From Escherichia phage FriedrichZschokke, in sequence record MZ501067: DNA of 64,000 nt. The stretch is one strand, 5' to 3'. The position numbers and the translations under genes were made by a program. The notes below the pieces were generated by a model that was not told the origin of the DNA, ran no database searches, and saw only the letters and a program-made list of their open reading frames with translations. This document shows positions 47,908-48,363 of the stretch, piece after piece (the stretch's first letter is position 1; each line of letters opens with the position of its first letter).

Positions 47908-48363
47908 TTATTTTAAATCGTCTGCCCAATCGAGTTTAAGAGGCTCTTTGTATTCACGGTCAAGTACAACCGGAATTTGTACATCACCGCTAAATGATAA
48001 GGGCCCAACATTATAAGACAATGTTATATGCGGTGTGTAATCATCAAAATCATGTGTAGCACCTAGTGCCCGCGCATACATGTGTCGACAGCGCAGATAT
48101 TCAGAATCTAGCACAAGTACAAGAGTCGATCCATCTTGCGTTTTCCATACTTCTAAATGCCCAGAAGAAGCTACTTCAAAACTTCCACTCGATGGAACAT
48201 ATGGAACATTTACTCTCGAATAACATATGGTCGAATGAATTTTTTCTCTAGGAACTGGATTAGGAACACGTAAAGAGCGCTGGAGTTCTTCCAGCGCGTC
48301 AAGTGTTAATTCTGAAAACTTAGCTGCTACATAAAGACCCGTTGAAAAGTCTTTAAATTCCAT
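47908..48363 (-). CDS. 57B: 2H phosphoesterase (Acb1-type cyclic-oligonucleotide phosphodiesterase; T4 gene 57B position)
   Basis: 151 aa; two H-x-(S/T)-x motifs (KIHSTI, TPHITL) diagnostic of the 2H superfamily; located just upstream of 57A as in T4. Confidence 0.75.

Follow-up and report, generated by a model that had tools for sequence, protein, structure and literature searches.

Acb1 was found in phage T4 as the product of gene 57B, by activity-guided fractionation in which cleavage of 3'3'-cGAMP was followed (Hobbs et al. 2022, PMC9117128). T4 Acb1 and its counterpart from Erwinia phage FBB1 were described with a U-shaped pocket closed by a lid, attack by an adenosine 2'-OH, a metal-free reaction and a linear 3'-phosphate product. 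The catalytic HxT/HxT tetrad is composed of H44, T46, H113 and T115, and the pocket displays stacking aromatics (Y12, W74, F107 and W147), an adenine-contacting glutamate (E141) and a C-terminal lid (PMC9117128). T4 Acb1 does not cleave cGG, cA4 or 3'2'-cGAMP, and its activity was seen ~15 min into infection. Deletion of acb1 from T4 left growth normal without CBASS and caused a more than 300-fold reduction on CBASS hosts (PMC9117128). In a transposon screen (HIDEN-SEQ), 57B was dispensable on K-12 and depleted on a CBASS host (bioRxiv 10.1101/2025.11.20.689424), and its expression was classified as middle/late (bioRxiv 10.64898/2026.03.30.715471). Panoptes guard systems, which sense the depletion of decoy cyclic nucleotides, restrict T-even phages encoding Acb1, and escapers carry mutations in acb1 (PMC13577387). 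Acb2 (T4 vs.4) serves the same anti-CBASS purpose with an unrelated fold; it is described as a cyclic-nucleotide sponge that sequesters the signals without cleaving them.

The window, i.e. the whole stretch of 64,000 nucleotides analysed here, belongs to a Tequatrovirus that is not T4; vB_EcoM-101117BS1 and vB_EcoM_Shinka are examples of the isolates to which it is 98-99% identical. Positions 47908-48363 on the minus strand hold an ATG-started open reading frame of 151 codons plus stop. Its product matched residues 2-152 of T4 57B/Acb1 (NP_049750.1; NC_000866) at 151 of 151 positions (100%). At the DNA level, 11 of the 456 nucleotides differed from T4, changing 10 codons, none of them non-synonymously. 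Protein residues 8-149 covered the entire Pfam model PF23474 (Anti-CBASS protein Acb1, positions 1-144 of 144) with 202.7 bits (E=2.6e-60), the curated cut-off being 27 bits, and residues 8-148 matched FBB1 Acb1 (PDB 7T26/7T27) at ~68% identity (E=4e-62). Homologues were encountered in more than 1,400 phage records, and were at least 99% identical in 498 of them. The initial annotation had regarded a 151 aa reading frame as the likely orthologue of T4 57B, itself said to be described as Acb1. The frame is real, the matches given above bear out the orthology, and the activity-guided fractionation of the T4 protein bears out the description (PMC9117128). The frame is almost certainly acb1 (T4 gene 57B) of a T4-like Tequatrovirus, encoding a 2H phosphoesterase that would cleave CBASS cyclic-nucleotide signals independently of metal ions. 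No evidence arguing against the Acb1 assignment was found in the analysis.

H-x-[ST]-x motifs occurred exactly twice in the translation, as HSTI at residues 43-46 and as HITL at residues 112-115, the pair on which attention had initially been drawn to this frame. The first catalytic motif, H43-S44-T45-I46 (T4 H44/T46), is encoded at 48226..48237 on the minus strand (reverse complement CAT TCG ACC ATA) and the second, H112-I113-T114-L115 (T4 H113/T115), at 48019..48030 on the same strand (reverse complement CAT ATA ACA TTG); residue numbers of the window protein are those of T4 minus one. Such a pair is weak evidence when taken alone, because at least two H-x-[ST] motifs were displayed by 16% of composition-preserving shuffles of the protein's own residues. 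It was dropped as stand-alone evidence for this reason, while homology was far beyond chance. In an alignment of 13 sequences (A1), in which the window, T4 and FBB1 proteins were joined by relatives from ten lineages, the catalytic histidines were retained throughout: H43, T45, H112 and T114 were invariant in 13 out of 13 sequences, down to 30% identity. The T4 contact residues Y12, W74, F107, E141 and W147 were likewise all present, as Y11, W73, F106, E140 and W146.

FBB1 Acb1 was solved in an apo form (7T26) and with a 3'3'-cGAMP analogue (7T27). It aligned to residues 8-148 of the window protein with one single-residue gap, and shared with it the HxT/HxT tetrad, the tryptophan of the C-terminal lid and the adenine-contacting glutamate. 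Two base-stacking positions differed, FBB1 displaying F in place of W73 and Y in place of F106, both of which are conservative. A compact fold of the 2H phosphoesterase type bearing a C-terminal lid is predicted from the 68% identity to chain 7T26_A over these residues. Since a single-sequence AlphaFold2 model was uninformative (mean pLDDT 37, pTM 0.30), the fold is assigned from the sequence identity shared with the crystallised protein. A divergent Acb1 of 165 aa (9Q2G/9Q2Y) belongs to the same family and displays the same two histidine motifs. It was matched with E=3e-13 by the A1 profile and only weakly by the single sequence (E=0.004). The alignment extended only through residue 120, so that the C-terminal part differs. 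The A1 profile also matched residues 493-611 of PDB 8HDS chain A (E=1.4e-8), the C-terminal part of the portal protein of cyanophage Pam3, where HVTI and HISL aligned to the two Acb1 catalytic motifs. A fusion between a portal protein and a 2H domain resembling Acb1 is suggested by this match.

The substrates, mechanism and phenotype proposed for the window protein are carried over from published work, namely experiments on T4 Acb1, whose sequence is identical, and the FBB1 structure. Accepting this analogy, the second messengers produced by the CBASS cyclases of the host, which are cyclic di- and trinucleotides, would be bound by Acb1 in a U-shaped pocket over which the C-terminal lid closes. 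The 2'-OH of a strained adenosine would then attack the 3'-5' phosphodiester, with catalysis by the HxT/HxT tetrad (H43, T45, H112 and T114). The ring would open via a 2',3'-cyclic phosphate intermediate into a linear 3'-phosphate product, no metal ion being required. The signal would thus be removed before CBASS effectors kill the infected cell, and the phage would complete its cycle.

The 2H HxT/HxT chemistry is common to Acb1 and LigT enzymes. The LigT 2'-5' RNA ligase superfamily (PF13563) shares the two H-x-T/S motifs as well as metal-independent phosphoester chemistry via a 2',3'-cyclic phosphate (PMC9117128). T4 57B and its orthologues are moreover labelled 'RNA ligase' in RefSeq, one record reads 'RNA 2',3'-cyclic phosphodiesterase', and PHROG 755 is described as 'RNA ligase'. 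A general 2H enzyme of RNA repair or RNA-end processing (LigT type), for which cleavage of cyclic nucleotides would be a side activity, could be read from these labels. This reading is nevertheless very improbable. The match to Pfam PF13563 (2_5_RNA_ligase2) was below threshold, with 13 bits where the cut-off is 27 (E=0.11), over residues 80-122 only, as opposed to the 202.7 bits obtained with the Acb1 model; a scan of the acb1 protein against NCBIfam matched no family. The sequence-identical T4 protein was isolated by its cleavage of 3'3'-cGAMP, its deletion phenotype was CBASS-specific with no other growth defect, and the pocket of the crystal structure is shaped for cyclic di- and trinucleotides (PMC9117128). 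The substrates of Acb1 are cyclic immune signals and not RNA ends, and the name 'RNA ligase' was inherited from automatic labelling rather than from tests of function.

Assignment to acb1 was also consistent with the surroundings of the gene. Local genes are all on the minus strand and are transcribed in the order gene 1, 57A, acb1, ipI, which is identical to the order in T4. Gene 1 (dNMP kinase, from 48605; Pfam DNMK E=8e-104) precedes 57A (tail fibre assembly chaperone, 48363..48605; Pfam PF17594 GP57 E=2.6e-50), which is immediately 5' of acb1, and ipI (Pfam IPI_T4 E=7e-54) follows at 47548-47835. The product of ipI is an inhibitor of the GmrSD restriction enzyme. Lying between 57A and ipI, the frame does sit at the place of T4 57B, as initially claimed. 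It had also been placed upstream of 57A, which holds only if it means lower coordinates on the plus strand: given the common strand, acb1 is immediately downstream (3') of 57A in transcription. Of the 11 related loci fetched, 10 kept the order 3-1-57A-57B (ten Straboviridae-type lineages); the exception was jumbo phage SCTP-2, whose Acb1 homologue has a different context. Genes found 3' of 57B in these loci varied from genus to genus. Identity of the gene, intactness of its catalytic and substrate-binding residues and synteny are direct observations.

Some variation was seen among these relatives. Acb1 homologues of Pseudotevenvirus and Slopekvirus, from Cronobacter phage leB (locus L009, 1513-2085) and Klebsiella phage 150040 (locus L011, 1459-2082), displayed a C-terminal extension of ~45 residues which the T4 type does not have. 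Their genes were located 50-110 nt from 57A, with no overlap.

In the window, 57A and acb1 meet in a TAATG junction (48361..48365, minus strand), the stop codon TAA of 57A and the ATG of acb1 overlapping by one base. T4 reads GAA TGA TGG at this place. Its 57A ends with TGA, and its annotated acb1 start ATG ATG GAA (MMEFKD...) gives an overlap of 4 nt with 57A. In the window, this place reads GAA TAA TGG (...GAATAATGG... against ...GAATGATGG... in T4), which converts the first T4 ATG into ATA. There is therefore no upstream ATG; the start codon of acb1 is the one whose A is also the last base of the stop codon, and the extra N-terminal methionine of T4 is missing. The TAATG junction was displayed by six other loci belonging to five genera (Tequatrovirus, Jiaodavirus, Tulanevirus, Lazarusvirus and Schizotequatrovirus). 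This arrangement is the common one; the exception is T4, whose TGATG is accompanied by a further in-frame ATG, one codon upstream. Junctions from IMG/VR amounted to two matches for TAATG and one for ATGATG, numbers that are very small. Because the TAATG start is common, absence of the first methionine relative to the annotated T4 protein is very unlikely to matter. Conversely, T4 Acb1, annotated with 152 aa, probably starts one codon too early, which would be a small refinement of known biology.

The one-base overlap suggests that translation of 57A and acb1 is coupled, and their shared strand that they are probably carried by the same transcript. A stop-start overlap lets ribosomes re-initiate without a strong Shine-Dalgarno sequence. 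That acb1 might be an intact but silent passenger, expressed poorly or not at all after loss of the first T4 ATG and with no strong Shine-Dalgarno sequence before the remaining one, has a negligible probability, since it is contradicted by the widespread TAATG start (six other loci, T4 being the exception) and by purely synonymous divergence (11 out of 11 differences from T4, as expected with purifying selection on an expressed protein), while re-initiation is permitted by the overlap and the 456-nt coding sequence is annotated in related records.

Expression of acb1, the almost certain identity of this gene, was considered through the promoter-like motifs around it, which are consensus matches only and are accordingly treated as candidates. 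A match to the T4 late-promoter consensus, TATAAATA, was located by pattern search at 48961..48968 on the minus strand; it lies within gene 1, 356 nt 5' of where 57A starts. The same motif occurs at exactly the same offset in T4 and is annotated as a late promoter in one related phage record. Across the window, TATAAATA was observed 11 times against 10.6 expected. As this count is at chance level, the match at 48961-48968 stays a candidate promoter for 57A-acb1. Its position upstream of 57A is compatible with the published middle/late expression and with activity at ~15 min. Between 47300 and 49600, a sigma-70 promoter scan returned 11 sites (8.2 expected) and a terminator scan one site (1.0 expected), both at chance level. 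Only two of the scan sites gained support, from a sequence repeat and from the annotation of another record, and both were located in the repeated cassettes flanking ipI. Rfam matched 11 tRNAs alone over the whole window, none of them in or adjoining acb1.

The first of these cassettes occupies the 54 nt from the acb1 stop codon (47855..47908, minus strand) and forms the 3' boundary of the acb1 unit. It combines T4-early-promoter-like hexamers at 47894..47866 (GTTTACA-N17-TACTAT) with a 14 bp hairpin at 47855-47886 (-18.6 kcal/mol, z=-3.4 in RNA folding), and one related record has both an early promoter and a terminator at this place in its annotation. Together with the segment 47489-47542, it constitutes a 54-nt direct repeat of 78% identity flanking ipI, each copy displaying early-promoter-like hexamers and a hairpin of ~14 bp. 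A partial third copy was encountered at 45006-45044. This arrangement fits the promoter-stem-loop (PeSL) mobile regulatory cassettes described in T4-type phages (PMC2839356, PMC4122927), and T4 displays a promoter-hairpin cassette downstream of acb1 as well. The conserved block 3-1-57A-acb1 ends exactly at the cassette and the genes found 3' of it differ between the genera examined, so that the cassette could be a crossover point. One may tentatively picture acb1 as the constant border of an anti-defence islet prone to recombination, the cassette at its stop codon serving to swap anti-defence cargo. This picture is rather unlikely and, if true, would be a small refinement of known biology.

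The second known T4 anti-CBASS gene was also found within the window. At 37451-37717 on the minus strand, ~10 kb from acb1, lies acb2 (vs.4), which is 95.5% identical to T4 vs.4 and matched Pfam Acb2_Tad1_hairpin (E=8e-20).

Comparison of the window with T4 coordinates 20-95 kb by blastn left no aligned block over mobB, mobC, the nrdD intron with I-TevII, mobD, segB and segC. Since the aligned blocks skip these coordinates, the phage is devoid of T4's homing-endonuclease genes over that stretch. In the same comparison, 13 window segments of 185-962 nt were without T4 match: 1-404, 1921-2153, 14546-14805, 16681-17004, 21055-21441, 28648-28922, 30028-30989, 31547-31991, 34541-35103, 39303-40245, 44411-44644, 45538-45995 and 47097-47281. 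The tRNA cluster (45492-46513, minus strand) contained 11 genes against eight in T4, for Arg, His, Asn, Tyr, Met(CAT), Thr, Ser, Pro, Gly, Leu and Gln. Its tRNA-Met(CAT) is probably the tRNA-Ile of T4, and segB, the homing endonuclease gene that interrupts the T4 cluster, was absent from the window. Two minus-strand reading frames at 39302-39775 (157 aa) and 39792-40109 (105 aa) begin with MKTYQEFI..E, like the N-terminus of ipI (MKTFKEF). Neither displayed a DNA match to T4 ipII or ipIII. They are located between vs.8 and denV, ipII and ipIII of T4 being located between denV and e. They probably encode alternative internal head proteins.

In public records, the gene is designated 'RNA ligase' in RefSeq (T4p137 in NC_000866) and in PHROG 755, 'hypothetical protein' in most GenBank entries and Acb1 in few. 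The annotated T4 coding sequence exceeds by one codon the one that begins at the start conserved in relatives. Records designated 'RNA ligase' or 'hypothetical protein' should be annotated as Acb1. The gene itself was already known, having been named, structurally solved and genetically tested in 2022, and the window copy encodes the same protein. Discovery value is accordingly small, the by-products being the relabelling as Acb1, the codon at which T4 57B likely starts and the presence of acb2 in the same window. A phage harboring acb1 together with acb2 is predicted to be resistant to many CBASS systems, and Panoptes guard systems are predicted to sense such a phage as well (PMC13577387). 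Both predictions are relevant to the host range of phage therapy candidates.
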